Shown here: piece after piece, positions 14,188 through 51,216 of the stretch
Layout of the letters: each line of letters begins with the position of its first letter
Numbering within the stretch: position 1 is the stretch's first letter
Assembly: GCA_963747235.1 (NCBI GenBank)
Contig: CAVVEU010000013.1
Span: forward strand, 256,001-320,000
Source of the DNA: an uncultured Candidatus Rokubacteria bacterium
GTDB lineage: Bacteria; Methylomirabilota; Methylomirabilia; Rokubacteriales; CSP1-6
DNA: 64,000 bases
Direction of reading: 5' to 3'
The notes under the pieces: generated by a model
Databases searched by the model: none
What the model was told of the DNA's origin: nothing
The model's input: only the letters and a program-made list of their open reading frames with translations
Translations under genes and position numbers: made by a program

Positions 14188-14202
14188 TGGCACAAGGCTT
14201 GC
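14188..14202 (+). promoter_or_regulatory. sigma54 -24/-12 promoter
   Basis: TGGCAC-AAGGC-TTGC, exact consensus, about 60 bp upstream of the PsiE-like gene. Confidence 0.8.
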
Positions 14203-14262
14203 CGATGCCACGGAGCGCCATGTGGCTCGTCGGTGTGCCGACGGGGCGATGGTGAGGCGCCG

Positions 14263-14753
14263 ATGAGTCCCACGGGTCGGGCGCGGCCGGCCGTGCGCGA
14301 GCGCATCGCGCCAGGGGTTCACCCAGGTCGAGGACGTGCTCTACGTGGGGATCGGGGTGATGCTGGCGGCGGGCGCGGTGGGGCTACTCGCTCAACGCGG
14401 GGGTGACGTTCGCGCGCAGCATCGGGGCCGGGGCGATCGGGGGCAGCATCGTGGGGCTGCTGGACCAGCTCCTGCTGATCCTCATGATGATCGAGATCCT
14501 GTACACGGTGCAGGTCTCGTTCCGGGAGCACGTGCTGGTGCCGGAGCCCTTCGTGCTGGTGGCCATGATCGCGGCGGTGCGGCGGATCCTGGTGCTCACC
14601 GCGGAGTTCGGCAAGCTCATGGAGCAGGGCGACCCGGTCTTCCGCTACGCGATGATCGAGCTCGGGCTGCTCACCGTGATGACCGGGGTCATGGTGGCCT
14701 GTCTGGTGGGGCTGCGAAAGCGCGACAAGGCGGTGGTGGCCGAGCGGGCCTGA
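14263..14753 (+). CDS. Phosphate-starvation-inducible E (PsiE) family membrane protein, frameshifted
   Basis: LDQLLLILMMIEILYTV..L.PEPFVLVAMIAAVRRIL; the N-terminus EDVLYVGIGVML is in another frame. Confidence 0.75.
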
Positions 14754-14777
14754 GATGACTCACGAGAGGAGCGGGAC

Positions 14778-15240
14778 ATGAAGATCCAGCAGCTCGACGA
14801 GGTCGAGGGGCGGCGGACGTTCGTGATGGTGTGCGACCGGGGCGACGATCCGGTGGAGGCCCTGACCGCGGCCGCCAAGCGCTTCGATCTCTCCGGTGCC
14901 TCGCTGACCGGGATCGGAGCCTTCTCGGGGGTGACGCTCGGATTCTTCGACCGGGCCCGGCGCGACTATGCTCGCCGGGTCATCCGGGAGCAGGTCGAGG
15001 TGGTCTCGCTGCTCGGCAACGTCGCGCTCGACGGCGGCGAGCCGCGGGTGCACGTCCACGTGGTGGTCGCCCGGTACGACGGGAGCGCCCTCGGGGGCCA
15101 CCTCCTGGGCGGCACCGTGGACCCCACGCTGGAGGTCATGCATCGTCGAGTCGCCCAAGACCCTTCGCCGAAAGACCGACCCGGCCACCGGGTTGGCTCT
15201 TCTCGACGTCGGACTGGAGTCGGTCGTAGTTACACGGTAA
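14778..15240 (+). CDS. PPC/DUF296 domain protein, frameshift near 15140
   Basis: GIGAFS, EVVSLLGNV, HVHVVV, GGHL, TLEV; C-terminus ESPKTLRRKTDPATGLALL in the alternate frame. Confidence 0.85.
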
Positions 15241-15371
15241 TATCTTCCCGACGCTGGGTCTCGGCCCGGCAACTCTAGGCTCTAGTGGATGTTGAGCTGT
15301 ACGCCGTAACCATCAGTGGGATTTACCGTTGTATCAGTTTTGCCGATCGGGGTCCTCCCGGTGGTCTTCGA

Positions 15372-15387
15372 GGGCATATCGCTTGCA
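15372..15387 (+). promoter_or_regulatory. sigma54 -24/-12 promoter
   Basis: GGGCAT-ATCGC-TTGCA (GG-N10-GC) upstream of the sigma54 activator gene. Confidence 0.65.
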
Positions 15388-15459
15388 GCCTAGGCCGCGA
15401 CGACCAAGCCGCTACCGTGAACCTTGAACCCTCGCGCGCTTCCCGAAAAGGGGATGACC

Positions 15460-16831
<1,372 letters not shown>

Positions 16832-16840
16832 GGCAGGACC

Positions 16841-16875
16841 AGGGCGGCGGCGGTCGAATCGTCGCCGCCCTTTTC
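16841..16875 (+). terminator. Intrinsic terminator
   Basis: AGGGCGGCGGCGGT-CGA-ATCGTCGCCGCCCT followed by TTT, just after the stop at 16831. Confidence 0.7.
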
Positions 16876-16924
16876 ATGCGTACGTGACGGCGGCGGTGGG
16901 CCCTTCGGGCGGAGCAGGGAGAGA

Positions 16925-17734
16925 CTAGCGGCGGCGCTCGCCGGCGCGCGGCTGGGCGCCGATCCACACCACCCAGGGGCGGCTGGAGGAGGACTCCTGT
17001 CGGATCTCGACGGGATATCCCTGCTGCTGGATGCTGCTGGCCAGGCGACTGGCCGCTTCACGGTCCGCGAAGGCGGCCGCGGGGGTCCACTCGCGCCCGG
17101 GTTTCCGCTCGGGCGTGGTGTTCAGGACGGCGGCCTGGGGCTGTCGGGGCGACTCAACCGGGCGCCCCGCACGGAGCTCGGGCGCCGGGATGATGGCCGT
17201 TCGCGGTTGCGCCGGCGGCAGGGTCGGGCCCGTCGGCTCGATGGCGGGCGTCGGCAGGTCCGCCACGCTCGGCGCCCGAAACGGCTCACGTGGATCGGTC
17301 GGCCGGACCACGTCCCGGGGATCACCCGGTTTGGCGGACGGCGGGTCGAATACGCGCGGCGCGACGAACGGATCGCGAAGCGACTCGGAGATCGGCGGCG
17401 GCATTCCCTGTGTCCCGTCCGACATGAGCGCGGCGGCGGGCAGCGCCGGCGCGGCGGTCTGGAGCACGCCCCCTACCACGTAGCTCAGGCTGAAGAAGAT
17501 GGCCAGAAACGTGGGGACGAAGGTGGCGGCGGCGATCAGGGGCCCGGGCACCGCGGCCAGGAGCCTCAGGCCAGGGTGCTCGTCCTGCCTGTTGTCGCCC
17601 TGGTCGGCCTCCTCGTCGACCTCGACTCCGTCCTCGGGGAAGACATCCTCGGTGGAGTTGAGGTCCGACGGCTCGGGCCGGGGCTCGTCCTGGATCTCGT
17701 CGTCGGCTTCGTGCTTCTTCAATCGGAGTAGCAT
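16925..17734 (-). CDS. Bitopic membrane protein with Pro-rich linker and C-terminal SPOR-like domain
   Basis: Acidic N-terminus, one TM helix (LIAAATFVPTFLAIFFSL), Pro-rich stretch, AAFADREAASRLASSIQQQGYPVEI..PWVVWIG. Confidence 0.65.
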   Translation of the reverse strand: MLLRLKKHEADDEIQDEPRPEPSDLNSTEDVFPEDGVEVDEEADQGDNRQDEHPGLRLLAAVPGPLIAAATFVPTFLAIFFSLSYVVGGVLQTAAPALPAAALMSDGTQGMPPPISESLRDPFVAPRVFDPPSAKPGDPRDVVRPTDPREPFRAPSVADLPTPAIEPTGPTLPPAQPRTAIIPAPELRAGRPVESPRQPQAAVLNTTPERKPGREWTPAAAFADREAASRLASSIQQQGYPVEIRQESSSSRPWVVWIGAQPRAGERRR

Positions 17735-17748
17735 GCTCTGACTGGCGA

Positions 17749-17763
17749 GCAAGTGACGTGCCA
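17749..17763 (-). promoter_or_regulatory. sigma54 -24/-12 promoter
   Basis: Reverse complement TGGCAC-GTCAC-TTGC; SPOR ATG lies 15 nt downstream. Confidence 0.8.
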
Positions 17764-17886
17764 CCGCGGTCGTCGTGCGAGTCGGTCGTTCGTCGTGCGA
17801 ATAGCCGGCGGAGCACGACGTGCCCGGGGAAGGAATTTCCGACACGCGGTCGGGGAGATGTTTCCCGAGCGAGCAACCGATCGCCC

Positions 17887-17901
17887 TGGCACGCGGGTTG
17901 C
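17887..17901 (+). promoter_or_regulatory. sigma54 -24/-12 promoter
   Basis: TGGCAC-GCGGG-TTGC upstream of the ANTAR gene. Confidence 0.8.
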
Positions 17902-17927
17902 GGCGAGGGCGGCTCAGGGAGGTGCTC

Positions 17928-18662
17928 ATGCGATCGATCCGCAGGATGTTCCAGAATGGCCCGCCGCGCTGGCGCGTGGCAATTCTCGAGTCGGATGCCT
18001 CGTCCCGCGCGATGCTGCGCGCGGCGGTGGAGGACGCGGGCGGCGTGGTGGCGGTCGAGGCTCCGCTGCGGCTCGACGCCGTCGTGGTGATGAGGGAAAC
18101 GCGCCCCGACGTCGTGATCATGGCGCCGAGCTTGTCCGGGACGCGCGAGCCGGCGCTGATGCCGCGTATCACCGCCGAGGTGGACTGTCCGGCGGTGCTG
18201 TTCACGCGGGACACCGATCAAACCGTGGTCAAGCAAGCCAATCGCGCCGGTGTGATGGGCTTCATGCTCAAGCCGCTCCGCGCGGCGGAGGTCGGGCCGA
18301 CGCTCGACCTGGCGCTCGCCCGGTTCCGCGAGATCCGGCGGCTGCAGCAGGCGCGCGCCGAGCGCCCGATCGTGGATCAGGCCAAGGGCAAGCTGATGAG
18401 CGACCGGCAGCTCAGCGAGGCGGAGGCGTTCCGCTGGCTGCGGCGCCAGGCGATGGATTCGCGCCAGCGGCTGGGCGACGTCGCGCGGGAGGTGCTGGCG
18501 GGCGAGCCGGGCGCTGCACGCGCTCCCGGAAGGGGCTCGATGACGCGCCGCGCCTGGAAGGCTTTACACGATCGGCCGGGAAATTCCTACTCGGTGGGGA
18601 CAGTTCGCCTTGCGGCCGACAGTGCGGTCATATGGCGGAGCAACTTGAGAGCGACGGCATGA
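17928..18662 (+). CDS. Pseudo-receiver + ANTAR RNA antiterminator (AmiR/NasT-like); C-terminal end uncertain
   Basis: GGAGG RBS; ERPIVDQAKGKLM..LSEAEAFRWLRRQAMD ANTAR signature; receiver reads PDVVIMA and FMLKP. Confidence 0.85.
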   Translation: MRSIRRMFQNGPPRWRVAILESDASSRAMLRAAVEDAGGVVAVEAPLRLDAVVVMRETRPDVVIMAPSLSGTREPALMPRITAEVDCPAVLFTRDTDQTVVKQANRAGVMGFMLKPLRAAEVGPTLDLALARFREIRRLQQARAERPIVDQAKGKLMSDRQLSEAEAFRWLRRQAMDSRQRLGDVAREVLAGEPGAARAPGRGSMTRRAWKALHDRPGNSYSVGTVRLAADSAVIWRSNLRATA

Positions 18663-18671
18663 CGATCTGGC

Positions 18672-18687
18672 TGGCATGGGCGATGCA
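18672..18687 (+). promoter_or_regulatory. sigma54 -24/-12 promoter
   Basis: TGGCAT-GGGCG-ATGCA ahead of the 18715-22409 operon. Confidence 0.65.
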
Positions 18688-18714
18688 GTTTCATGCCGCA
18701 TGGAGGTGACAGCT

Positions 18715-19054
18715 ATGGAAATGATCGTGGTGGCGACGATGCTGCTCGTGGTCGTGCTCCTGGGAGTCGCTGTCAAGCTCTACGACCTCAAGCGGAAGCG
18801 TGAGGATGAGGCGATCGCGGCCCAGGCCAGGATCTCCGATGCGTTGCTGATGGACGCGACCCTGGCCGGCCTTGCCGCTGACGCCGACCGCGCATCTGCC
18901 GCTCTGGAAGGGCTCGCCGCTCGTCGTCGAGCTCACCGGCGCCGTGCCCAGGGCCGAGCTGCGAGAGGCCGCCGTGGACGTGGCCAGGCGGGAGATGGGT
19001 CGTAGCCGGTCCGACTTTCGGATCGAGGACCGGATCGCGGTCCGCGCGGCCTAG
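18715..19054 (+). CDS. Small membrane-anchored protein with BON-like fold, frameshift near 18872
   Basis: GGAGG RBS; TM helix MEMIVVATMLLVVVLLGVAV; ISDALL..VELTGAVP..AVDVA..IEDRIAV pattern. Confidence 0.55.
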
Positions 19055-19057
19055 CGC

Positions 19058-19690
19058 ATGCGCGTCTCGTATCTGATTCCGCCCTGTCTGATCTCAGTGG
19101 TCCTGGTGGGGCTCGCGGTCCTGGCCCCGGCGCCCGCGCGCGCCGGGGCCCCGACCGACCAGCTCAAGGCCTCGGTCGACCAGATCGTCAAGGTCCTGGA
19201 GGATCCGTCTCTCAAGCCGGAGGCCCGGGGCCGGGAGCGTCGGGCCGCCATCCGCAAGGAGGCCGAGGGCGTCTTCGACTTCACCGAGACGGCCAAGCGC
19301 GCCCTGGGCCGGCACTGGCAGGGACTGGCCGAGAAGGATCGGCAGGAGTTCACCGCGCTCTTCACCGATCTCATCGAGCGGGCCTACATCTCGAAGATCG
19401 AGCGGTACAGCGGGGAGCGCATCGCGTACGCGGGCGAGGCGGTGGACGGCGGCCTCGCGACGGTGCGAACGCGGTTCGTGACCAAGCAGGGCACCGAGGT
19501 CCCGGTGGACTATCGTATGCAGCAGCGGGGCGAGCGGTGGCTCGTGTACGATGTGGCTGTCGAGGGCGTGAGCTTGATCAACAACTACCGGACCCAGTTC
19601 GACAAGATCATCCAGACCTCCTCGTATGCCGAGCTGGTCCGGAAGATGAAGGCGGCCGAGTTCGCCCAGCCGGCCTCCCCGCGGTCGTGA
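19058..19690 (+). CDS. mlaC: MlaC/Ttg2D-family periplasmic lipid-binding protein
   Basis: FDFTETAKRALGRHW, VDYRM, VYDVAVEGVSLINNYRTQF; signal peptide. Confidence 0.88.
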   Translation: MRVSYLIPPCLISVVLVGLAVLAPAPARAGAPTDQLKASVDQIVKVLEDPSLKPEARGRERRAAIRKEAEGVFDFTETAKRALGRHWQGLAEKDRQEFTALFTDLIERAYISKIERYSGERIAYAGEAVDGGLATVRTRFVTKQGTEVPVDYRMQQRGERWLVYDVAVEGVSLINNYRTQFDKIIQTSSYAELVRKMKAAEFAQPASPRS

Positions 19691-20083
19691 GCGCGCGCGT
19701 GTCGCGAGCCGGGCTCGGCCGGCTGCTGGCCGGGGTCGCCGTCGCTGCTGGCCCTCGCGCTGGTGGGAATGGGCGTGGCCCCGGCGGGGGAGCGTCGCGC
19801 CGGCTCGGTCCTCGCGGTGGATCCCCAGGCGCGCACCCTGACCCTCGACGAGTTCGGCGCCAATGCCGAGCGGCGCGCCCTGCGGGTGCAGGTCCCGCGC
19901 GAGGCGGTGGTGCTGCTGTCGCAGCGCAACCAGGCCGGCCGCGACGTGAAGGACAGCTTCCGGGACAGCACGATCACCCTCGCCGACGTGCGCGTGGGCG
20001 ACTTCGTGGTGCTCGAGATGTCGGACGACCCGGAGGTGGCCCGGCTGGTGATGATCACCCTGCGGAGGGGTGCCGGGTCCTAG
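19687..20083 (+). CDS. Small secreted hypothetical protein (OB-fold-like), probable frameshift near the start
   Basis: GSVLAVDPQARTLTL..LADVRVGDFVV; GTG overlaps the mlaC stop. Confidence 0.5.
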
Positions 20084-20102
20084 TGCGAGGGGAGGCCGCC
20101 TG

Positions 20103-22409
20103 ATGGCCGACGGGTGGGGAGGCTGGTTCCACGGCCTTCGTCGGTGGACTCTTCTCGCGGGCGTGCTGCTGGCCATCGTGGTGCTGGTCGGCGGCGGGCT
20201 CGCCATCTACGCGGCGCGCGCGCTCTCGCGGTTCGAGCGGGTGGAGGCGCGTCGCTCCACCGTGCTGTACGCCGCCCCACCCGTGCTCCGGCCGGGTGTG
20301 AACGTGAGCGCGCTCGATCTGGCCGGGATCCTGGGCCGTCAGGGCTATCGCGAGACCCGCAACGCGGGCGCACCCGGCCAGTTCTCCCGCTCGGAGAGCG
20401 CGTGGGAGATCAACGTGGCCGGCGCGGCCCGCGTCACCCTGGCCGTGTCGGGCGGGCGCATCACCCAGCTCCGCCAGGGCGACACCGCGGTCCAGAGCGT
20501 CGCGCTGCCCCCCGAGCTGCTGGCGAGCGCCGGCGCGGACATGGGCGAGAACATCCGCCCGGTGCGCCTGCCCGATGTTCCCCAGCTCCTGCGCGACGCG
20601 GTCCTGGTCACCGAGGACGTGCGCTTCTACGAGCACGGTGGCGTGGACCCTCGCGGCATCGTGCGCGCGCTGTGGACCAATGTCCGGAAGGGCCGGGTCG
20701 CCGAGGGGGGCAGCACCATCACCCAGCAGCTCGTCAAGAGCCGGCTGCTCAACCCGGAGCGCACGCTCGCCCGCAAGATCAACGAGGCGCTGCTGTCGAC
20801 CGCGCTCGAGTGGCGCTACAGCAAGGACCAGATCCTCGAGGCCTACCTCAACGAGATCTATCTGGGGCAATCGGGCGGCTCGGCGGTGCGCGGCGTCGGC
20901 GCCGCCTCGCGGGCCTACTTCGGCAAGGAGGTCCATCAGCTCTCGCTGACGGAGTCCGCACTGCTCGCCGGGATGATCCGCGGCCCCAACAACTACTCGC
21001 CGGTCGCCAATCCCGAGCGGGCGCGCGAGCGGCGCGACGTGGTGCTGACTCGCATGCGCGGCCTCGGCAAGATCTCGGAGGCCGACTACCAGCGCGCGCG
21101 CAAGGAGCCGGTGCGGGCGCGCACGACGCCGGCGAACGGGCTGATGGCGCCGTACTTCGTGGACTACGTGCGCGCCGAGCTCGAGCGGAATGCCGACATC
21201 GACCTGGCCGACCTGCACGGGGTGCGGGTCTACACCACGCTCGATCCGGTGCTGCAGCGCGTGGCCGAGGCCGCGGTGGTGAAGGGCATGGACCGTCTCG
21301 AGACGCTGCGCCCGCGGCTGCGCCGCAAGAATCCGGAGGAGCGCCTGCAGGTGGCGATGATCGTGCTCGACCCGGCCACCGGACAGGTGCGCGCGCTCGT
21401 CGGGGGCCGCGACTACCGGGCGAGCCAGTTCAACCGGGCCGTCCTCGCCCGCCGCCAGCCGGGTAGCGCGTTCAAGCCGTTCGTGTTCCTGGCCGCGCTC
21501 ACGCCGCGGAAGGACGCGAGCCTCTTCACCCCCGCCTCGCTGATCGAGGACGCGCCCATCACGGTGATGGTGGACGGCAAGCCGTGGACGCCCAAGAACT
21601 ACGACGACCGCTACGAAGGGCCGGTCACGGTGCGCCGGGCGCTGGAGGGCTCGCTGAACACCGCGACCGTGCGGGTCGCCCAGGCGGTGGGCCTGCCCGT
21701 GGTCATCGAGACGGCGCGGACGATGGGCATGGAGGTGGATCTCAAGCCGGTGCCCGCGCTCACTCTGGGTGTCTTCGAGATCACGCCGCTGGCGCTCGCG
21801 CGCGCGTACCTGCCGCTGGCCAACGGGGGCCTGGCGCCGTCCGGCGGCGGGGTGGTGGAGACGGTCGCCGACGAGGGCGGGCGCGCGCTCTGGAGCGCGA
21901 GCCGCGAGACGCGCCCGGTGATCGGCGCGCCCGAGGCCTTCCTGGTCACCTCGCTGCTGGAGGGCGTGGTCAACGTGGGGACCGCGGCTTCCGCGCGCGC
22001 GGCGGGGGTGCCCGGCGCGGTGGCCGGCAAGACGGGGACGACCAACGAGGGCCGGGACGCCTGGTTCGTCGGCTACTCGCCCAACCTGCTCGCGCTCGTC
22101 TGGGTGGGCTTCGACGACGGCACGCCGGCCGGGCTATCCGGGTCGGAGGGCGCGCTGCCGATCTGGTCCGAGTTCATGCGACAGGCGCTCGACATCTACC
22201 CGGGTGGCGCGTTCCCGGAGCCGGCCGGCATCACCCACGCGAAGGTGGACGTGACCACCGGCCGCCGGGCCACCGCGTTCTGCCCACTCGTCGCGACCGA
22301 GGTGTTCCTGGCCGGCAGCGAGCCGCCGCCGTGCGAGGAGCATGGCGGGAGCGTCACGGAGCAGGTCGAACGCTGGTGGGATAAGGTCCGGGGCTGGTTC
22401 GGAAAGTAG
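20103..22409 (+). CDS. Class A penicillin-binding protein (PBP1B-like transglycosylase-transpeptidase)
   Basis: TEDVRFYEH.G, GGSTITQQLVK, RKINEA, KDQILEAYLN; SAFK, SLN, KTGT motifs. Confidence 0.92.
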   Translation: MADGWGGWFHGLRRWTLLAGVLLAIVVLVGGGLAIYAARALSRFERVEARRSTVLYAAPPVLRPGVNVSALDLAGILGRQGYRETRNAGAPGQFSRSESAWEINVAGAARVTLAVSGGRITQLRQGDTAVQSVALPPELLASAGADMGENIRPVRLPDVPQLLRDAVLVTEDVRFYEHGGVDPRGIVRALWTNVRKGRVAEGGSTITQQLVKSRLLNPERTLARKINEALLSTALEWRYSKDQILEAYLNEIYLGQSGGSAVRGVGAASRAYFGKEVHQLSLTESALLAGMIRGPNNYSPVANPERARERRDVVLTRMRGLGKISEADYQRARKEPVRARTTPANGLMAPYFVDYVRAELERNADIDLADLHGVRVYTTLDPVLQRVAEAAVVKGMDRLETLRPRLRRKNPEERLQVAMIVLDPATGQVRALVGGRDYRASQFNRAVLARRQPGSAFKPFVFLAALTPRKDASLFTPASLIEDAPITVMVDGKPWTPKNYDDRYEGPVTVRRALEGSLNTATVRVAQAVGLPVVIETARTMGMEVDLKPVPALTLGVFEITPLALARAYLPLANGGLAPSGGGVVETVADEGGRALWSASRETRPVIGAPEAFLVTSLLEGVVNVGTAASARAAGVPGAVAGKTGTTNEGRDAWFVGYSPNLLALVWVGFDDGTPAGLSGSEGALPIWSEFMRQALDIYPGGAFPEPAGITHAKVDVTTGRRATAFCPLVATEVFLAGSEPPPCEEHGGSVTEQVERWWDKVRGWFGK

Positions 22410-22425: not shown

Positions 22426-22740
22426 CTAGACCGCGAGGACGCGGCCGAAGCGGCGCAGGCGATCCTGGATGTCCCCCATGAAGAGGAAGGCCAGGCCGTC
22501 GGAGTCCTGCCGCCACACCAGCGCCGGCACGTTGAACGGCGACCCGTCGGGCGGCCGGAACCGGAGCTGAGCCGGCGTCCCGATGTCGATCCGCTCCTTG
22601 GGCCTCACCTTGGCCCCGCGGGCCGAGATGTCCACCGTCTGGAGGAGGAAGCGGCGCTTGCCGGCCTCCACGACGACGAGCCAGGAGACGTCGGTGCGCG
22701 GGTGGCGACGGCGGTCGGCGGCGTGCTTGGTGTTGATCAT
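22426..22740 (-). CDS. Stand-alone PilZ domain protein
   Basis: RRRHPR (RxxxR) and DISARG (DxSxxG) c-di-GMP motifs. Confidence 0.88.
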   Translation of the reverse strand: MINTKHAADRRRHPRTDVSWLVVVEAGKRRFLLQTVDISARGAKVRPKERIDIGTPAQLRFRPPDGSPFNVPALVWRQDSDGLAFLFMGDIQDRLRRFGRVLAV

Positions 22741-22752
22741 GCCGGGGTACGA

Positions 22753-22767
22753 GCAATCTGCGTGCCT
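22753..22767 (-). promoter_or_regulatory. sigma54 -24/-12 promoter
   Basis: Reverse complement AGGCAC-GCAGA-TTGC; PilZ ATG is 13 nt downstream. Confidence 0.7.
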
Positions 22768-22887
22768 CGGCGAGATGCGCGCCAGATCAGGGACTTGAAT
22801 CCATGTTAGCCCCACGGCGGACCGTCAAGTCGGTGTCGTGACGCTGACAGTGTTCGCCGGCTGCCAAAGCGTGTACAGTCGGGGGCC

Positions 22888-27271: not shown

Positions 27272-28297
27272 CTAGGAAGGAAGCGCGACGCGCGCGAGCA
27301 GCTTCACGTCGTCCAGCAGCGCCCCGGCCCCGCGCACCACGCAGGTCAACGGGTCGTCGCTCACGCGGATCGGCAGGCCGGTCTGCTCGTGCAGCAGCAG
27401 GTCGAGCCCGCGCAGGAGCGCGCCGCCGCCGGACACCACGATGCCCTTGTCCACGATGTCGGCGGCCAGCTCGGGCGGGATCTGCTCGAGGCACGTGTGC
27501 ACCGCGCTCACGATGGCCATGATCGGCTCGCGCAGCGCCTCGCGGATCTCCTCGCCGGTCACCAGGATGGTCTTGGGAATGCCGACGATCAGGTCGCGGC
27601 CCTTGACCTCCATGGTGAGGTGCTCGCCCGCCACCGGGTAGGCGGAGCCCAGCCGCAGCTTGATGTCCTCGGCGTGGCGCTCGCCCACGAGCAGGCTGTA
27701 GTTCTTGCGGATGTGCTGGATCACCGCGGTGTTCATCTCGTCGCCCGCGATGCGGGCGGACTTGCAGTAGACGATCCCGGACAGGGACATCACCGCGACC
27801 TCGGTGGTGCCGCCGCCGATGTCCACGATCATGTTCGCGCCCGGCTCGGCCACCGGGAGGCCCGCACCGAGGGCCGCCGCAATGGGCTCCTCGATCAGAT
27901 AGGCCTCGCGAGCCCCCGCCTGCTTGGCCGACTGGCGCACCGCCCGCTTCTCCACCTGGGTGATCCCCGAGGGCACCGTGACCACCACGCGCGGGTGCAC
28001 GATGCTCCGCCGCTGGTGGGTCTTGCGGATGAAGTAGTGGAGCATCTTCTCGGTGGAGTCGAAGTCGGCGATGACGCCGTGGCGGAGGGGCCGGATGACC
28101 GAGATGCTCCCGGGAGCGCGGCCGAGCATGGCCTTGGCCTCGTGGCCGGCGGCCAGCACCACGCCGTCCTTCATGGCCACGATGGAGGGCTCGTTGAGGA
28201 CGATGCCCTGTCCTCTCACGTACACGAGAGTATTGGCGGTTCCCAGATCCACCGCCAGGTCGTCGGCCAGGAAGCTCATGAGGGATCTCAGACGCAT
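27272..28297 (-). CDS. mreB: Rod shape-determining actin MreB paralogue
   Basis: DLGTANT, NEPS, GVIADF, IEEPIAAA, DIGGGTT, AGD, GGGALL. Confidence 0.95.
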   Translation of the reverse strand: MRLRSLMSFLADDLAVDLGTANTLVYVRGQGIVLNEPSIVAMKDGVVLAAGHEAKAMLGRAPGSISVIRPLRHGVIADFDSTEKMLHYFIRKTHQRRSIVHPRVVVTVPSGITQVEKRAVRQSAKQAGAREAYLIEEPIAAALGAGLPVAEPGANMIVDIGGGTTEVAVMSLSGIVYCKSARIAGDEMNTAVIQHIRKNYSLLVGERHAEDIKLRLGSAYPVAGEHLTMEVKGRDLIVGIPKTILVTGEEIREALREPIMAIVSAVHTCLEQIPPELAADIVDKGIVVSGGGALLRGLDLLLHEQTGLPIRVSDDPLTCVVRGAGALLDDVKLLARVALPS

Positions 28298-28326: not shown

Positions 28327-28341
28327 GCAACGGATGTGCCA
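28327..28341 (-). promoter_or_regulatory. sigma54 -24/-12 promoter
   Basis: Reverse complement TGGCAC-ATCCG-TTGC, 30 nt upstream of the mreB ATG. Confidence 0.82.
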
Positions 28342-28540
28342 GGGGGGTGGGCCGGTTCGACGACGTGGAGTGGTTGCCGGAGGGCCGTCTCCTACTATAG
28401 GCGGGGGTGGACAGGCGCCCCTCTTCGGCGAAAGTGTCAGCATAGGTATGTTTTACATTACACCAAGGTAAGATTTACCCCGCCTTCCGACCCGGAAAGG
28501 GCCTTGTCCTCCCCGGGGCCCCGTCGTAATCTTGGGCGCC

Positions 28541-29323
28541 ATGAAGGCCCCCCGGAAGCCCCTCGCCAAGATCGAAGGCCGCAAGCGCATGCGGCAGAGC
28601 GGCCTCACCGTCGCCTGGCATGGCACCCGGAGCCGGAAGGACTGGGCGGCCTATGTCGAGAACGGGAGCGAGCAGGGGCGCCTCGTACTGGCCGAGCAGG
28701 TGTCGGAGCGGGCGGTGAAGAGCCTGCTCGCGCGCATCCAGAGCCTCTCGAGGGATGCGCTCGAGGCCATGGCGCGCCCGGTCGAGGCGGTCGCCGCGCA
28801 GGGTGGGGGACCGCCGGTCCGCCGGCCACGTGGAGGTGGCGAGACCAGCTCGAGCTCCGAGATCATCGTGCAGGCGCTCCCGGGCCGCCAGCTCGCGCTG
28901 AGCGGCGACACGGGGGCGGAGGCGCCGGCCACCACGAGCTCACGCCGCCGCCGGCTGCCGGCCAAGGTCGAGCGCAATCCACCCGCCGAGCGCCGCCCCG
29001 CGCGGGTCTCTGCCCGGGATCTGGCGGGGACGGTGCGGCAGCTTCGCTCGCGGCTGGAGAGCCTTGAAGAGGAGCAGGAGGAGCTACGGGCCGAGCTGGC
29101 CGTGCTGCGCGGGGACGCCGAAGCCTACGAGGGGACGACGCCCAGCATCTTCGTCACGGGCTGGTTCCGGGCGACCCTGGTCCTGATCGTGCTGGCGATC
29201 GTGGTGGTGATCAGCGTGCCGTGGCTGATGGAGATCTTCGAAGGAGGCGCGCGCGAGTCACGCCCACCGGCTCGCAACGAGGCGCCGGCGCCCTCGCCGA
29301 ATCCGACCCCGAGCGCTCGCTGA
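28541..29323 (+). CDS. Hypothetical protein: basic N-terminal domain, coiled coil, C-terminal TM helix
   Basis: ATG 28541; LRSRLESLEEEQEELRAEL coiled coil; TLVLIVLAIVVVISVPW. Confidence 0.6.
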   Translation: MKAPRKPLAKIEGRKRMRQSGLTVAWHGTRSRKDWAAYVENGSEQGRLVLAEQVSERAVKSLLARIQSLSRDALEAMARPVEAVAAQGGGPPVRRPRGGGETSSSSEIIVQALPGRQLALSGDTGAEAPATTSSRRRRLPAKVERNPPAERRPARVSARDLAGTVRQLRSRLESLEEEQEELRAELAVLRGDAEAYEGTTPSIFVTGWFRATLVLIVLAIVVVISVPWLMEIFEGGARESRPPARNEAPAPSPNPTPSAR

Positions 29324-29658: not shown

Positions 29659-29687
29659 ACTCTAGGTCCGGACCCGCGAACTGTCAA
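29659..29687 (-). promoter_or_regulatory. sigma70 promoter, leaderless transcript
   Basis: TTGACA-17-TAGAGT-6nt-ATG on the minus strand. Confidence 0.7.
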
Positions 29688-31758: not shown

Positions 31759-32068
31759 GGCCGCCACCTCGAGGGGTGGAGCATGCTAGGCGCGCGGCCA
31801 TCGTCGTGTCAAGACTGGGAAGGCGCGTGCCTACTCAGGGAGCGGAAGCGCCCAAGCTTGGTGCAGGCCTTCCCATCGCGCTGCGCGCGGCGCTGCGGGC
31901 GGACGACACGCTGGCGTGAGGCCGGCGGCGCTACTTGAAGCCAGCTGTCGGGCGATCGCGGTTAAGTAGCTGATGTGGCTCACGTCGCCGCGTGCAAGTC
32001 ATGCGGGGTCCGCGTGCGCGCCTCGAAGGCGCGGCCGCGCTCCAGGCGCGACGGCCGTCGCGCCCCGG

Positions 32069-32083
32069 TGGCACCGAGTTTGC
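32069..32083 (+). promoter_or_regulatory. sigma54 -24/-12 promoter
   Basis: TGGCAC-CGAGT-TTGC. Confidence 0.8.
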
Positions 32084-32098
32084 CGAGTATCAATCGCC

Positions 32099-32269
32099 TT
32101 GAGAGTCATTTGCCCGCGGTGCCAGCAGGAAGGCAAGCCCAGTCTCCTGGTCACGATCGACATCCCAGGCGACGACCGCGAGGTCCACGGGCTGTGCTGG
32201 ACGCACCGGCTCCGCCTGCTGGCCAAGGCCACCGACTCACCGTCCGCCCGCGAGCCCGGGAAGCCCTGA
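32099..32269 (+). CDS. Small putative zinc-binding protein (~56 aa)
   Basis: TTG start; CPRC...HGLCWTH (CxxC + HxxCxxH). Confidence 0.55.
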   Translation: MRVICPRCQQEGKPSLLVTIDIPGDDREVHGLCWTHRLRLLAKATDSPSAREPGKP

Positions 32270-32271
32270 CG

Positions 32272-33009
32272 ATGCTGCTGGGCGGACGGTTCCATCGGAT
32301 GTCGATCTGGTTCTGGCGTACGGTACCCGCCCGCCGACTGCTCGTGATCGTCGGCCCCGATCGTCCCGCGCTCGTGCCCAGGCTCGAGCGGCTCTTCGAG
32401 GGCGAGCCCGGGACGGTGGACGTCGTGCTCGACCGGAGGCGTCACGAGCGCCGCGGAGCGGGCGTGGCGCGCCGGCCGGAGCGGCGGCGGCGGGACCGGC
32501 GGCAGCCGCGCGGCGCGGCCCGGCGGCGCGGCGACGTCTCGGTGGTGATTCGGCGGGAATCCGCGCCCGGACTGGATTACACTCCCCCCATTCATACGAC
32601 CCCCGATCCGGTCCCCATTCATGCGAAAGGAGAAGTTCGAATGATGAGCGTCGAGTCGAAGCAAACGCGTGACGGAGACGACGTGCGGCGCTGGCTCGAG
32701 GCCGGGCAGACCCAGCTCGCTTCGCTCCTGGATCTGCTGCACGAGCACGATCGCCTCCGCGAGCGCGTGGAGTCTTCCGAGCGGGAGAACGAGCGGCTGC
32801 GCGGCGTGACGTACGAGAACGAGCAGCTCCGCAACCGGCTCGAGACCTCCGAGCGTCAGGCCGAGCACCTCCGCCAGGGCATGGGCGAGCTGCGCGCGGA
32901 GAACGAGCGGCACCAGAAGGAGCGCGAGGAAGCGGCCGAGCGGCTCAACCACCTCGTCAACGAGATCGCGCAACGCCTGCGCCCCGGCGCGGGAGTCTCG
33001 CGCACCTGA
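32272..33009 (+). CDS. Arg-rich DRR/ERR-repeat protein in frame with a coiled-coil protein (second start at 32641)
   Basis: VVLDRRRHERR..PERRRRDRR; strong AAAGGAG RBS before ATG 32641; heptad coiled coil to 33009. Confidence 0.55.
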   Translation: MLLGGRFHRMSIWFWRTVPARRLLVIVGPDRPALVPRLERLFEGEPGTVDVVLDRRRHERRGAGVARRPERRRRDRRQPRGAARRRGDVSVVIRRESAPGLDYTPPIHTTPDPVPIHAKGEVRMMSVESKQTRDGDDVRRWLEAGQTQLASLLDLLHEHDRLRERVESSERENERLRGVTYENEQLRNRLETSERQAEHLRQGMGELRAENERHQKEREEAAERLNHLVNEIAQRLRPGAGVSRT

Positions 33010-33104
33010 GAACCGCGTCGCCAATTTTTGTCCGCTTCCCGGCGGCCGCGTGCCGCCGGGCGGCGGGGGCGCGCGGTTTTGAGGGGTTTCCCGGCCGTCT
33101 CCGT

Positions 33105-33120
33105 TGGCACCCCGGATGCA
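33105..33120 (+). promoter_or_regulatory. sigma54 -24/-12 promoter
   Basis: TGGCAC-CCCGG-ATGCA upstream of a response regulator. Confidence 0.72.
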
Positions 33121-33158: not shown

Positions 33159-33557
33159 ATGACCGATACCGACAGCGCGAGACCGCGGGTCCTGCTGGTG
33201 GACGACGAGGAAGGCGTGCGCATGAGCCTGCGCGCCCTGCTCGAGCGCGAGTACCGGATCGCGAGCGTGCCGAGCGGCGAGGCGGCGGTGGAGGAGCTGC
33301 CGCGCTTCCGGCCCGACGTCGTGCTGCTCGACGTGCGTCTCCTGCCGAGCATGAGCGGGCTCGACGCGCTCGAGCGCATCAAGGCATTCGACGAGCGCAT
33401 CGAGGTCGTCATGATCACCGCCTTCGCCTCGCTCGCCACCCTCAACGAGGCGCTGCGCCGCGGCGCCTGCGGCTACCTCATCAAGCCGTTTCCCCGCCGG
33501 GACCTGGAGCTGATGGTCCGCGACGCGCTGGCCCGCCGCGGCCCGCGGCTGGACTGA
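33159..33557 (+). CDS. Single-domain response regulator
   Basis: VLLVDDE, VLLDV, MITA, YLIKPF. Confidence 0.9.
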   Translation: MTDTDSARPRVLLVDDEEGVRMSLRALLEREYRIASVPSGEAAVEELPRFRPDVVLLDVRLLPSMSGLDALERIKAFDERIEVVMITAFASLATLNEALRRGACGYLIKPFPRRDLELMVRDALARRGPRLD

Positions 33558-33645
33558 TCTCTTGGAGCACGCCGTTGACAGGATTGGCTCCCCCGGTCAG
33601 AATTTGTCCACACGCTCCATCCCAAGCGACGGGAGGGTATCGCCC

Positions 33646-35849: not shown

Positions 35850-35875
35850 GCCACTGTCAGCTCAGTGACAGTGGC
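35850..35875. promoter_or_regulatory. Perfect inverted repeat, candidate enhancer (UAS) or terminator
   Basis: GCCACTGTCA-GCTCAG-TGACAGTGGC; contains TGT-N10-ACA; about 100 bp upstream of a sigma54 promoter. Confidence 0.45.
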
Positions 35876-35966: not shown

Positions 35967-35981
35967 TGGCAGGGACGTTGC
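35967..35981 (+). promoter_or_regulatory. sigma54 -24/-12 promoter
   Basis: TGGCAG-GGACG-TTGC upstream of bactofilin-M23. Confidence 0.72.
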
Positions 35982-36066: not shown

Positions 36067-36480
36067 ATGTGGCCATGGAAAGCCCGCGTCTCCGCCGCGA
36101 CTCGCAAGAAGCTCACCGCCTTCCTGGACGAGGGCTCCGAGATCGAGGGCAAGTACACGTTCACCGGCACCGTCCTGCTCAACGGGAAATTCCAGGGTGA
36201 GATCGCCTCGCCGGACACCCTCATCATCGGAGAGCGCGGGGTGGTCAACGCCATCGTTCGCGCGGGCACGCTCGTGGTGAACGGCGAGCTGGTGGGGAAC
36301 GTGCACGCCAGCGAGCGGGTGGAGCTCACCGGCAAGGCCCGCGTCTTCGGCGACCTCGAGTCGCCGATCGTGGTGCTGGACGAGGGCGTGATGTTCGAGG
36401 GCCACTGTCGGATGCCCAGGTCCGGAGCGTCCGAGCCCATCCGAGAGGCGGCGGCGGTGGTGCCGCTCAAGCGGTCATGA
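36067..36480 (+). CDS. Bactofilin (polymer-forming cytoskeletal protein)
   Basis: FLDEGSEIEG, LNGKFQG, VVNGELVGNV, GVMFEGHC. Confidence 0.92.
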   Translation: MWPWKARVSAATRKKLTAFLDEGSEIEGKYTFTGTVLLNGKFQGEIASPDTLIIGERGVVNAIVRAGTLVVNGELVGNVHASERVELTGKARVFGDLESPIVVLDEGVMFEGHCRMPRSGASEPIREAAAVVPLKRS

Positions 36481-37370
36481 GCGACCGGCGCGGCGGCGGC
36501 TTCACGCTGGTCCTGGTGCACGGCGGCGGCACCCGCATGCTCCACGTGGGCTGCCCGCGCTGGCTCCTGTGGGCCGGCCTGACCCTCCTGCTGATGAGCG
36601 GCGCGCTGCTCGGCGGGACCTGGATGGACTACTTCGCGCTCAAGCGGGCCCATCTCCAGGCGGCCGCCCTCGAGCGGCGCGTCGAGGAGCAGCGGGCGCA
36701 GCTCGAGGCCTTCGAGCAGCGGGTGGTCGAGGTCAACCGCGAGGTGGTGGGCTGGCAGGACATGCACGTGCGCCTGTGGAGCGCGTTCGGTCCGGCCCCC
36801 GGCCAGGCGGGCAAGGGCACGGGCATGGGTGGCGCGGTGGCCGTCCTGCCGATGGTCTTCGCGAGCGAAGGGCCGGCCCTGCCGCAGCAGCTCGCCTTCC
36901 TGGCCAGCACGGTGAGCGAGAGCGGCCAGAGCCTGCGGGCGCTGGGTCGCTTCGTGGAGCGCACCCGCTCCGTGCTGCTCGCGATGCCCTTCCGCTGGCC
37001 GGTCCGCGGGCCGCTGAACTCCCGCTTCGGTCAGCGCCCGTCGCCGTGGACGGGCGAGCCCGAGTTCCATCGCGGCCTCGACATCAGCGCCGGCCGCGGC
37101 ACCCCGGTGTACGCGCCGGCCACCGGTGTCGTGCACTACGCGGGCGCGGGCGGCGAGTACGGCAACATCGTCATCCTCGATCACGGGCACGACCTGCGCT
37201 CGCTGTACGGGCACCTGCAGGAGGCCCGCGTGAAGCCCGGCGAGCACGTGGAGCGCGGCCAGCTCATCGCGCTCACCGGCAACACCGGCCGCACCTCCGG
37301 CCCGCACCTGCACTACGAGATCCAGGTGCGCGGCCAGGCCGTGGATCCCCGCCAGTACCTCTCGGAGTAG
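36477..37370 (+). CDS. M23 family peptidoglycan endopeptidase with TM helix and coiled coil
   Basis: HRGLD, YGHL, GRTSGPHLHYEI; ATGA overlap with bactofilin. Confidence 0.92.
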   Translation: MSDRRGGGFTLVLVHGGGTRMLHVGCPRWLLWAGLTLLLMSGALLGGTWMDYFALKRAHLQAAALERRVEEQRAQLEAFEQRVVEVNREVVGWQDMHVRLWSAFGPAPGQAGKGTGMGGAVAVLPMVFASEGPALPQQLAFLASTVSESGQSLRALGRFVERTRSVLLAMPFRWPVRGPLNSRFGQRPSPWTGEPEFHRGLDISAGRGTPVYAPATGVVHYAGAGGEYGNIVILDHGHDLRSLYGHLQEARVKPGEHVERGQLIALTGNTGRTSGPHLHYEIQVRGQAVDPRQYLSE

Positions 37371-41595: not shown

Positions 41596-44247
<2,652 letters not shown>

Positions 44248-44251
<4 letters not shown>

Positions 44252-44361: not shown

Positions 44362-44371
44362 GCGATCGAGC

Positions 44372-45079: not shown

Positions 45080-45095
45080 TTTGGTTCCCGTCCTG

Positions 45096-47480: not shown

Positions 47481-47620
47481 GGGCTTACCTTACCCGCCGA
47501 GGATGCGCCCCGTACCAGGTTTTTGGCACATGTCTGGAAAGTTGGACTCTCCGGGCCCCTTCTCGGTACATTAGCGGCTCACGTGACGGCCTGATCATGC
47601 CCCCCACTCGAGATCGCTCC

Positions 47621-49255: not shown

Positions 49256-49269
49256 GGTCCCGTACCGCC

Positions 49270-51138
49270 CTACAGCCCCTGCTTGACCTGCGCGCCGCCG
49301 GTGACGCTGATCACCGCCGAGCCCGGCGCGATCTGCAGCGTGTTGCCGGCCAGGTTCACGATCGGGCTACTGCCCAGGTTGATGGTCCCGCCGCCCGCCA
49401 CGAAGACCGGCAGGTTGCCGATCATGGAACATCCCCCGTTGCCGCAGAGGCCGTTGGTGATCGAGAGCGTGTTGCCGGTGCCGATGAAGTTGATGAGCGC
49501 GCCGGTGATGTTGAGGGTCGAGCCGCCCGAGAGGCTCAGGAGCGCGCCGTTGGTCAGGGTCAGCGTGCTACCGCCGGCGAGGCGGAAGAGATCGCCGGCC
49601 ACCGACAGGGTCGCGCCGCCGGAGAGGCTCAGCGCGTGGCCCTTGATGGTGAGGCTGCTGGCGGTCAGCGCGGTCATCTGACCGAGCTTCACCGCCGCGC
49701 CGTTTGAGAGCTCGACCAGGCTGCGGTCGGTGGTCAGGGCCGCGCGCTGGGTCAGGCTGAGGAGCGGGGCGCTGGCGCTGACCAGGTCCATGACCGCCCC
49801 GCCACTGACCGAGAGCAGGCTGCCCGCGGCGCTGGCGCTCGAGCCGACGAGGTCTACCAGGGCGGAAGCGCCGCTACCGAGGAGGCTGGCGCCGCCCGCG
49901 ATCTGCACCATGTCGGAGGCGAGGCCGAGTCCGCCGTTCTGATCGTGGAACAGGGTGCCGGTAAGGCTGAAGGTGGCTCCGCCGCCCAGCGTCAGCAGGC
50001 TGGCCGCGCTCAGCTTCGAGGGGTCGAGGTAGAGGAGCGGGGCGGTCCCGCTGCTTGCGAACGTGGCGCCGCCCGTCACGTCCATCAGGCTCTGGCCGAC
50101 GCTCAGGGAGCTGCCGATCGCCTCGAGGATCGGCACGGTGGGGGTGTCGGTCTGCCCCGCGGTCAGCGAGTAGAGACTGCCGCGCGCGGTCACGGCTTGG
50201 CCGTTGTAGGAAAGCCGCGCCTGACCTGTGGGGCCGGCGGTCGGAGTGGGTGGCGGGCTGCCCGGCAAGGTCGAGGCGACGAGCGCAACGACCGGCGTGT
50301 CCGTGATGCCCGGCGTCCCGTTGCCCTGCGCGCTCGGGGGCGGGGCCGAGGCGCTGTCGCCGCCCGCACCCGCGCCGGCCATCTCCGGGGCCAGGAACTC
50401 GGCCACCGCGAGCGCCTTCGCCTGCTCGTGCGAGGTGACGCTGGCCATGAACTCCGCCGGCCCTTCGGCGATCTGGGGCGCCGAGCGGAGGTCGGCGAAG
50501 ACCTGTGCGGCCGCGGTGGGCGACAGCGGCATTTGCGAGAAGGGCTCGCTCCCGGTGCGGCTCCAGCTCTGGAGCGTGCCGACCTGGGCCGGGGCGGCGC
50601 CCGGATTGTTCGGGTCGGACACCTCCACGAGGCCGTGCAGGACGTGGACCTTGGTCGTGTAATTCGGCTGGCCGGGTGAGCCGCCCGGCGCGGGGATCAG
50701 CTCGACCACCAGGACCGTCCCGCGAATTGCCGCGATCGCGTTCGGGGTGCGGATCTCGATCACCTCGCCGGGACGCATGCGCTGCCGCACGACTCCCATC
50801 GCGATCTTGCCCGAGGTGAGATCGACGGTGGAGCGGCCGGTCTCTTCCTTGATCGTGAGGGACGAGAGCTCGCGCACCGTCACGAGCGCCTTGCCGCCGA
50901 GGAGCACGCGCACCACCGACTTCTCGGCGGTGGCGATGTGATCCCGCATGAAGACGTTGTCTTTGAAGTGCAGGGGCTGGGGAGTGGGCAGGGCGGCGCG
51001 GGCCACCGTCACCGTACCGGCCAGCGTCGTGACGACACCGACGCCCCGGCCGCCGTCGCCCGCGGTCTGAGCCAGGGCGATGCTCGGCCACACGGCGAGT
51101 AGCAGGGCCACCCGGGTCACACGCACCAGCCATCTCAT
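49270..51138 (-). CDS. Secreted FecR-domain protein with Gly/Ser/Leu-rich beta-helix passenger
   Basis: Signal peptide; GVVTTLAG.V, D.I.T..S, EIRTPNAIAAIRGT; repeats such as LLSLSGGSTL. Confidence 0.8.
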   Translation of the reverse strand: MRWLVRVTRVALLLAVWPSIALAQTAGDGGRGVGVVTTLAGTVTVARAALPTPQPLHFKDNVFMRDHIATAEKSVVRVLLGGKALVTVRELSSLTIKEETGRSTVDLTSGKIAMGVVRQRMRPGEVIEIRTPNAIAAIRGTVLVVELIPAPGGSPGQPNYTTKVHVLHGLVEVSDPNNPGAAPAQVGTLQSWSRTGSEPFSQMPLSPTAAAQVFADLRSAPQIAEGPAEFMASVTSHEQAKALAVAEFLAPEMAGAGAGGDSASAPPPSAQGNGTPGITDTPVVALVASTLPGSPPPTPTAGPTGQARLSYNGQAVTARGSLYSLTAGQTDTPTVPILEAIGSSLSVGQSLMDVTGGATFASSGTAPLLYLDPSKLSAASLLTLGGGATFSLTGTLFHDQNGGLGLASDMVQIAGGASLLGSGASALVDLVGSSASAAGSLLSVSGGAVMDLVSASAPLLSLTQRAALTTDRSLVELSNGAAVKLGQMTALTASSLTIKGHALSLSGGATLSVAGDLFRLAGGSTLTLTNGALLSLSGGSTLNITGALINFIGTGNTLSITNGLCGNGGCSMIGNLPVFVAGGGTINLGSSPIVNLAGNTLQIAPGSAVISVTGGAQVKQGL

Positions 51139-51201
51139 CGCGATCAGTCCTCCGTGCAGGGGTTGCGTGGCGGCGCATAACGCGCCCGCCAGTAAGAGTT
51201 A

Positions 51202-51216
51202 GCAAGGCGTCTGCCA
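51202..51216 (-). promoter_or_regulatory. sigma54 -24/-12 promoter
   Basis: Reverse complement TGGCAG-ACGCC-TTGC upstream of the FecR gene at 51138. Confidence 0.75.

Follow-up and report, generated by a model that had tools for sequence, protein, structure and literature searches.

The sigma-54 holoenzyme waits as a closed complex and fires only when an enhancer-bound AAA+ activator hydrolyses ATP; the classical NifA-type enhancer has the form TGT-N10-ACA. Myxococcus xanthus is said to have 53 enhancer-binding activators that act in developmental cascades, and the bactofilin-M23 pair CcmA-Csd1 of Helicobacter reportedly forms a morphogenetic module. Rokubacteria are, to our knowledge, abundant in soil, never cultured and undescribed as to their regulation. 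Here we analysed a 64-kb window of a Rokubacteria genome (Rokubacteriales, Methylomirabilota; contig C13:256001-320000; the window means this whole stretch) carrying eleven predicted sigma-54 promoters. We consider these elements probably genuine RpoN promoters, forming the densest island of a large multi-activator network and a mosaic of several regulons. A network of that kind is known; what is unusual here is its cytoskeletal targets and the uncultured phylum. It resembles Myxococcus xanthus development in its many activators, in an activator gene behind a sigma-54 promoter and in targets of the envelope or spore-coat type. Unlike that ordered developmental cascade with its ~50 activators, it has about 20 activators in an uncultured organism known from its genes alone.

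Francke et al. 2011 (PMC3162934) present sigma-54 as the 'central controller of the bacterial exterior'. The Rokubacteria network is likewise envelope-centred, with genes for lipopolysaccharide transport, LpxC, lipid trafficking, peptidoglycan enzymes, pili and polysaccharide. In contrast to that paper, in which the words mreB, bactofilin and penicillin never occur, it also includes cytoskeletal paralogues, a class A penicillin-binding protein (PBP), M23 and SLT hydrolases and many receptors of cyclic di-GMP (c-di-GMP). With these, the recognised tie of sigma-54 to the cell exterior reaches the cytoskeleton as well. The sigma-54/CtcC regulon of Chlamydia trachomatis is tied, in the excerpted text of Soules et al. 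2020 (PMC7482065), to membrane reorganisation in cell-type change. There, one activator serves a small regulon, whereas here a multi-activator network occurs with no known cell-type change. The excerpted sigma-54 regulome of Desulfovibrio vulgaris (PMC4641369) offers a parallel in that many activators are matched there, across a whole genome, to predicted promoters and enhancers; it differs in phylum and targets, and the present pairing comes from sequence alone. Pohl et al. 2024 (PMC10945521, in part) describe BacA-LmdC as a morphogenetic module of a bactofilin with an M23 endopeptidase. In our window, too, an M23 peptidase gene comes immediately after a bactofilin gene. Unlike BacA-LmdC, this pair stands behind a sigma-54 promoter seen in this genus only, shares its enhancer with an extra MreB and is known from genes alone. 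Searches of the literature found no paper linking Rokubacteria to sigma-54, or sigma-54 to mreB, enhancer binding protein and cell shape; for sigma54, MreB and bactofilin together they found only a Myxococcus review.

The draft genome comprises 5.57 Mb in 42 contigs (70.7% G+C, 88% complete). Our own codon-usage caller, which is crude and probably missed some genes, gave 5243 genes and 79% coding DNA. A sequence-only reading of the window had proposed eleven intergenic, correctly oriented -24/-12 elements. All were located, each with a GG to GC spacing of exactly 10 nucleotides (nt). A position weight matrix (PWM), trained on 110 intergenic, oriented matches to the consensus with at most one mismatch, returned exactly eleven matches of 10 bits or more in the whole 64 kb. 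These were the same eleven sites (12.4-20.5 bits), all intergenic. Their distance to the start codon runs from about 12 nt (PilZ gene) to at least 134 nt ('psiE' ORF, for open reading frame), so that the earlier 'within about 100 bp' was roughly right. The promoters, the genes behind them and their retention in relatives (syntenic 28-40 kb from six genomes of the same genus, anchored on PEPCK at 86-97% identity) are as follows.

14188..14202, forward strand: sigma-54 promoter TGGCACAAGGCTTGC, 18.0 bits, kept in 4/4 relatives with an orthologue; behind it, the 140-aa no-family ORF 14336-14758 ('psiE') and a PCC-domain gene, 14778-15278.
15372..15386, forward strand: weaker sigma-54 promoter GGGCATATCGCTTGC, 12.4 bits, site in the same place in 5/5 relatives; behind it, a REC-AAA+-HTH activator (Pfam; ATG at 15460), split by a frameshift into 15424-16887 and 16319-16831.
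17749..17763, reverse strand: sigma-54 promoter TGGCACGTCACTTGC, 20.1 bits, kept in 3/3 relatives (DNA anchor); behind it, a 265-aa protein gene, 16925-17722, with a weak C-terminal SPOR match below cut-off (E 0.0045).
17887..17901, forward strand: sigma-54 promoter TGGCACGCGGGTTGC, 17.2 bits, divergent from the 17749 site, kept in 5/5 relatives; behind it, an ANTAR-REC regulator (Pfam), 17922-18662.
18672..18686, forward strand: sigma-54 promoter TGGCATGGGCGATGC, 13.8 bits, kept in 5/5 relatives; behind it, a small membrane ORF (ATG 18715), an MlaC/HpnM-like gene (19058-19690), a 106-aa ORF (19763-20083) and a class A PBP gene (20163-22409), a probable operon because the gaps are 52-79 nt.
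22753..22767, reverse strand: sigma-54 promoter AGGCACGCAGATTGC, 13.7 bits, kept in 5/5 relatives; behind it, a 104-aa PilZ protein gene, 22426-22740.
28327..28341, reverse strand: sigma-54 promoter TGGCACATCCGTTGC, 20.5 bits, site and spacer invariant in 6/6 relatives; behind it, an orphan MreB paralogue, 27272-28279.
32069..32083, forward strand: sigma-54 promoter TGGCACCGAGTTTGC, 16.3 bits, kept in 6/6 relatives; behind it, a 56-aa Cys-rich ORF (TTG start, 32099-32269) and a 245-aa coiled-coil protein gene, 32272-33009.
33105..33119, forward strand: sigma-54 promoter TGGCACCCCGGATGC, 14.1 bits, kept in 5/5 relatives with varying spacer; behind it, a single-domain response regulator (REC) gene, 33159-33557, with pckG downstream.
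35967..35981, forward strand: sigma-54 promoter TGGCAGGGACGTTGC, 14.6 bits, kept in 5/6 relatives (none in G001) and also in G079, G005 and G086; behind it, bactofilin (PF04519), 36067-36480, and M23 peptidase (PF01551), 36477-37370, with stop and start overlapping.
51202..51216, reverse strand: sigma-54 promoter TGGCAGACGCCTTGC, 17.6 bits, kept in 3/3 relatives with a fully divergent spacer; behind it, a 622-aa FecR-domain protein gene, 49270-51138.

The exact consensus TGGCAC-N5-TTGC occurred five times in the window (14188+, 17749-, 17887+, 28327- and 32069+) against 0.08 expected, and none of 100 shuffles reached five. With at most one mismatch, 10 matches were observed against 2.9 expected; one of them, unclaimed (31302-), has TTCC at -12 and scores below 10 bits. 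With at most two mismatches there was no excess in the window (44 observed against 53 expected in shuffles), so the two-mismatch sites at 15372 and 18672 depend on PWM score, position and conservation only. This last count is what speaks for reading the matches as products of chance or of GC-rich bias, two of the eleven sites being such matches. The excess of exact and one-mismatch sites, the placement of PWM matches, their orientation and their conservation all contradict that reading, to which we give practically no credence.

Such sites proved rare inside coding sequence and seldom point the wrong way. Of the 38 exact consensus matches in the genome, 36 are intergenic. At 12 bits or more, the PWM found 180 intergenic matches (155 per Mb) against 59 coding ones (13.4 per Mb), a roughly 12-fold density, and at 14 bits or more 122 against 14. 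From these counts the false share among intergenic matches is roughly a tenth or less. Matches in tandem gene gaps point with the genes in 89 cases and against them in 11, convergent gaps hold 4, and the median distance from site to called start is 52 nt. The span 14188-51216 (37.1 kb) holds 11 of the 180 sites where 1.2 would be expected; none of 2000 random placements reached 11, and it is the densest sigma-54 cluster of the genome.

Conservation upstream of orthologues gave a concordant picture. In 52 of 53 orthologous promoters from the six relatives a site of at least 11 bits lies in the same place, the bactofilin promoter of G001 being the sole miss; from coding density, a chance site of such score within the search range would occur in about 1% of cases. 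Invariant alignment columns made up 102/110 of the core, 28/55 of the N5 spacer and 38/660 of the 30 + 30 nt flanks. Spacers drift freely, the FecR, REC and SPOR-like promoters being examples, a pattern that indicates selection confined to the two elements. No synteny with the region was seen in four genomes of another family, likewise anchored on PEPCK.

If the eleven elements are RpoN promoters, each would stay silent until an AAA+ activator, bound at an enhancer 50-190 nt upstream, remodels the closed complex. We compared the regions from -230 to -20 of the 180 sites with 1685 site-free upstream regions, testing 6616 7-mers. Several words were enriched: TGTCAGC (16/180 against 14/1685, p 1.3e-9), TTACACG (10/180 against 2/1685, p 3e-9), CCGGTAA (15/180 against 14/1685, p 8e-9) and AGGAATT (9/180 against 4/1685, p 3e-7). 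Alignment with the relatives reveals upstream blocks that are conserved at each promoter but unlike those of the others. Those in the window, listed as putative enhancers, are given below.

14066..14091: GTTACCG..CGGTAAC.TTTACCG (GGTAA class), about 100-120 nt upstream of the 14188 site, invariant in 5 genomes.
15230..15241: TTACACGGTAAT, upstream of the activator's promoter, with TTAC.C.GTAA invariant in 6 genomes.
17832..17840: palindrome-like GGAATTTCC between the 17749 and 17887 promoters, with GGAAAT(T) conserved (AGGAATT class).
18564..18587: TTACACG ... GGAAATTCC, upstream of the PBP-operon promoter, with TTTACAC and AAATTCCTAC..TCGG conserved in 6 genomes.
22834..22849: dyad TGTC-N8-GACA (containing GCTGACA), ~75 nt upstream of the PilZ promoter, with GACA(C/G)TGTCA conserved in 6 genomes.
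28435..28474: mreB enhancer region, a TGTCAGC half-site (28435-28441) plus a TTACA..TGTAA palindrome, with CTGACAC and ATGTAAAA invariant in 7 genomes.
35855..35870: dyad TGTCAGCTCAGTGACA of the TGT-N10-ACA type, ~104 nt upstream of the bactofilin promoter, with CTGTC-N9-TGACAG kept in relatives.

The eleven promoters thus split over at least five word classes. TGTCAG marks PilZ, mreB and bactofilin-M23; GGAAATTCC marks the divergent SPOR-like/ANTAR pair and the MlaC-PBP1A operon; GGTAA / TTACACG marks the 'psiE' ORF and the activator's own promoter, TTACACG recurring at the PBP operon. CTACTTG / AAGTAGC words lie at 31931 and 31964, upstream of the Cys-rich ORF promoter, and the REC gene has a conserved block of its own, GCCAATTTTTGTCCGC, at 33020-33035. 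Upstream of the FecR gene (51202 site) none of the enriched words was found.

The sequence-only reading had taken all eleven promoters for one regulon under one activator, for instance the autoregulated neighbour, that co-induces MreB, bactofilin, M23, SPOR, PBP and MlaC in a single differentiation or shape-change programme. The exceptional clustering of the eleven sites favours such a regulon, as do the coherent envelope, shape and signalling theme, the predicted sigma-54 promoter (15372, kept in 5/5 relatives) from which the activator gene in the window would itself be transcribed, and TACACG-like words at the activator, at the PBP operon and, in relatives, at the mreB and PilZ promoters. 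The enriched words tell against it, none being common to all eleven, and sigma-54 promoters stand before these gene families throughout the genome, which encodes about 20 activators (genes with a full sigma-54 interaction domain) for about 180 promoters. We regard a single regulon as very unlikely. Since the conserved enhancer words differ and so many activators are available, we favour several regulons. Under this mosaic reading, a TGTCAG / TGT-N10-ACA regulon would be driven by an NtrC-type response regulator, with the product of C13:345919-347271 as candidate; a GGAAATTCC regulon would take in the SPOR-like and ANTAR pair and the MlaC/PBP1A operon; and a GGTAA / TTACACG regulon would join the 'psiE' ORF to the local activator's own promoter, implying positive autoregulation. 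The Cys-rich ORF, REC and FecR genes would each answer to other upstream sequences. A proposed link to the neighbouring trehalose/glycogen genes found no support, as no site of 10 bits or more lies in the window outside 14188-51216.

The word of the TGTCAG class, TGTCAGC/GCTGACA, has 94 copies in the genome, 52 of them intergenic. Sixteen of the 180 sites carry it in the 300 nt before them, mostly at -69 to -112; the TGTCAG word at -40 to -155 marks 16-20 of the 180 promoters, ~15 of them outside the window. The dyad TGTC-N8-GACA, which is TGT-N10-ACA, has 22 copies, of which 16 are intergenic and 6 upstream of sigma-54 sites. It is spacing-specific, since other spacings in the 4-13 range give 0-2 upstream of sigma-54 sites. 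As with the NifA enhancer, about 70-110 nt separate it from the -24 element downstream. Unlike NifA, with its GAF domain and nif targets, the candidate binder has a receiver domain (NtrC/AtoC type) and the targets are envelope and cytoskeleton genes. Members outside the window include an SLT lytic transglycosylase, two FecR-domain proteins, a second PilZ, an SPFH operon, a REC-MlaC pair, a REC gene and several unknowns. In 14/14 relatives' loci the SLT, FecR and SPFH members keep site and TGTCAG/CTGACA words at the same distances, and all six members compared (three in the window, three outside) keep the enhancer word in relatives. Across the order, dyad plus site gave 177 matches in 55 of 81 genomes, against 4 for a reversed-pattern control; 4 of these matches, from two unpublished genomes, carry no weight here.

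The TGTCAG word might instead be the site of another DNA-binding protein, such as a repressor or nucleoid protein, or a mark of shared descent, in which case mreB, bactofilin and PilZ would not be co-activated. Consistent with this, mreB carries only a half-site, the hexamers are variably arranged (10, 22 or 24 nt from start to start) and ~34 intergenic copies lie away from sigma-54 sites. Against it stand the concentration of the word at -69 to -112 in either orientation, its roughly 10-fold enrichment over control upstream regions, the spacing-specific, intergenic dyad, its constant position in the 14 relatives' loci while the surrounding DNA drifts, and the reversed control's 4 matches against 177. 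We judge this alternative unlikely. An enhancer of the mosaic network is our preferred reading of the word, and mreB, bactofilin-M23, PilZ and the outside members would then probably form one signal-dependent envelope and cytoskeleton module. The extra MreB, bactofilin-M23, SLT and PBP may remodel shape or envelope upon a signal. The candidate activator gene (REC-AAA+-HTH) is preceded, 72 nt from its start, by a perfect GTGTCAGC-GG-GCTGACAC dyad that adjoins a -10-like sequence (TATGCT/TAGGCT), and it has orthologues in 40/40 family genomes searched. The chances that it serves the TGTCAG class appear about even.

A further dyad was seen in a sister family. Six genomes (G023, G025, G042, G046, G056 and G061; family f4, genus g6) have up to 13 TGTCG-N6-CGACA matches each, 67-97 nt before a GGCA-N7-TGC element and often several per contig stretch. 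They seem to make up a further large enhancer class.

RpoN itself was looked for and found, in a single frame in 4/4 complete relatives' loci and frameshifted in this assembly. The promoters could therefore be real in the lineage and silent in this organism, with rpoN and the local activator both frameshifted pseudogenes. One extra base relative to five relatives (C8:~725,446) puts the activator-interacting domain of rpoN out of frame with its core- and DNA-binding domains, and a +1 frameshift at 16295-16305 (~16299) interrupts the window activator, an intact ORF of 460-474 aa in five relatives. If both were real, the network would be dead in this strain. Promoters and enhancers are kept here as well as in relatives with intact genes, and the unrelated PhoX and BrkB genes and two more sigma-54 activators (pieces at C8:49078-49579 and C13:45156-45592) are split alike, as fits indel errors in a 42-contig, 88%-complete draft. 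Because these other genes are split too, assembly errors look more likely than pseudogenes, and we consider a silenced network quite unlikely.

Several other points besides the frameshifts weigh against genuine promoters in a mosaic of regulons. The relatives' sites were chosen with a PWM trained on matches of at most one mismatch, which makes the core conservation partly circular, and all conservation lies within one genus, whose genomes are not independent. The crude gene calls, with 79% coding, render the 'intergenic' counts approximate. The word classes rest on single 7-mers, and some members are probably chance, for example C13:365982 (word at -47). Several flavours of TGT-N10-ACA accompany sigma-54 sites across the order; the dyad form is therefore a generic one that more than one activator uses, and by itself it singles none of them out. 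The candidate's own dyad was found only in the 3 loci with an upstream region of their own, in 2 of them mismatched; of 26 loci in the family, one has an exact match and 23 have the end of a histidine-kinase gene there. Finally, among 23 bactofilin loci of other genera, no site was found within 700 nt. Most of these loci hold bactofilins in tandem and may represent another paralogue, and loci of two unpublished genomes were left out of the count. A second bactofilin copy exists in this genome too (C24:538074). The sites, their non-random placement, their conservation and the enhancer word classes are what the sequences show; activator assignments, the co-induction of classes and any cell-shape change are what we infer.

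The proposed envelope, shape and c-di-GMP theme was borne out and extends genome-wide. Roughly 150-180 sigma-54 promoters make up the network, and Pfam was run on 190 proteins behind 113 of those outside the island. The c-di-GMP genes among them comprise four more PilZ, two GGDEF-EAL and two HD-GYP-type genes, beside at least eight single-domain receivers. Envelope genes comprise three more MlaC, MlaA, LptC/LptA (adjoining rpoN), LpxC, three BON, two OmpA, two SLT, a YkuD L,D-transpeptidase and three more FecR-domain genes. Type IV pilus genes also stand behind sigma-54 promoters, as do nitrogen genes: an ANTAR regulator with a urea/amide-type transporter, allophanate hydrolase and GDH. The outcome is a testable wiring map of ~150-180 promoters and several enhancer classes, one of which would tie the extra MreB, bactofilin-M23, hydrolases and c-di-GMP receptors to one signal. 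Its short DNA sites and small proteins are open to in vitro work without growing the organism.

A second island, at C39:4700-61300, has 10 sigma-54 sites in 37 kb. Its genes encode a hibernation factor, baeRF, DUF5670, BON, CBS proteins, an M50 protease, HU, a 1014-aa YkuD L,D-transpeptidase, five Usp, HSP20, PCMT, a P-type ATPase, OmpA and GDH, a set that reads as stress or dormancy-type. Elsewhere in the network, L122 and L173 each have a REC-MlaC gene pair downstream of a sigma-54 site, and a Pup-proteasome operon (Mpa/ARC ATPase, Pup ligase and proteasome subunit; C24:737587-742116) lies behind a predicted sigma-54 promoter.

The MreB of the window is a convincing family member (PF06723, 457.6 bits; TIGR00904, 475.8 bits against a cut-off of 365.75). 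It is one of four full-length MreB genes in the genome. The best-scoring copy, on C14, is followed by MreC/MreD and is the separate mreB-mreC/mreD operon that was looked for; the window copy stands alone, without mreC/mreD, and a tree places it in a paralogue clade apart from canonical MreB. Neither the paralogue nor its promoter was seen outside this genus. Loci L011-L016, L021, L023, L025 and L026, which could have been read as deep conservation of the orphan promoter, are canonical MreB orthologues in the tree, and that reading was rejected. Placing cytoskeletal paralogues under a promoter type that is off unless signalled suggests conditional remodelling of cell shape or envelope.

Two observations concern other mreB genes. 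In other Rokubacteria genera, canonical mreB (89-94% identical to the C14 copy) has a conserved TGGCAC-N5-(T/C)GTGCTA 85-115 nt upstream; canonical mreB of this genus has no sigma-54 site. A further MreB paralogue at C24:810924-811898 has a 17-bit sigma-54 site upstream (C24:810636-810650), in an area (C24:805-811 kb) with 8 sigma-54 sites in 37 kb.

Becraft 2017, the Rokubacteria genome paper, speculates on dormancy and raises for this phylum the puzzle of a large genome in a very small, perhaps dormant cell; sigma factors, sporulation and cell shape do not come up in the paper. A tentative possibility, which we hold to be doubtful, is that Rokubacteria of this genus run a sigma-54 resting-cell or shape-remodelling programme, in which the TGTCAG activator would turn on accessory cytoskeleton, peptidoglycan cutters and c-di-GMP receptors while the C39 island would supply dormancy functions. 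Its members might include the extra MreB, bactofilin-M23, the lytic transglycosylase, PilZ receptors, FecR-domain envelope proteins and lipid-trafficking MlaC, with, on the C39 side, the hibernation factor, HU, HSP20, Usp, CBS proteins, the protein-repair methyltransferase, BON and the L,D-transpeptidase. If true, it would provide a mechanism for the puzzle raised in that paper.

The window proteins were checked against Pfam and NCBIfam models. Earlier labels that held were the sigma-54 activator, ANTAR-REC, MlaC-like, class A PBP, PilZ, MreB, REC, bactofilin, M23, FecR, PEPCK and the SBP_bac_5 binding protein. 'BON-like' had no family match, 'psiE' had none even at E<=1, and 'SPOR' is the weak, sub-threshold match listed above. 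The supposed Zn-microprotein is the 56-aa ORF, of CPxC...C..H type and conserved in relatives. The bactofilin-M23 pair is retained in relatives, and the closest NCBIfam resemblance of the M23 protein, below cut-off, is to the helical-shape peptidase Pgp3. The MlaC-family protein 19058-19690 scores 88 bits with HpnM (hopanoid-associated), also below cut-off, and better than with E. coli-type MlaC.

At two promoters the start codon lies very close to the -12 element, 12 nt past it for PilZ (ATG) and 15 nt for the Cys-rich ORF (TTG), in relatives too. The predicted transcripts of PilZ (22740-22767) and of the Cys-rich ORF (32069-32101) would be leaderless or nearly so.

Sigma-70-type promoters had been claimed for pckG, a binding-protein gene and a tRNA. 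A sigma-70-like pckG promoter, TTGACA-17-CAGAAT, was found at 33575-33603; a strict scan gave none for the binding-protein gene, and the sole tRNA (Gly), at 63291, lies outside 14188-51216. Further sigma-70-like promoters (TTGACA, 17-18 nt spacer) occur on the reverse strand at 31783-31812, before a CBS-domain gene, and at 29659-29687, before a 108-aa ORF. With three of them among the sigma-54 sites, both promoter types interleave in the island. The no-family proteins 28532-29323 and 32272-33009, which adjoin the mreB and REC promoters respectively, have C-terminal coiled coils and weak DivIC, ZapB and TolA-binding-like matches (E 0.001-0.2).

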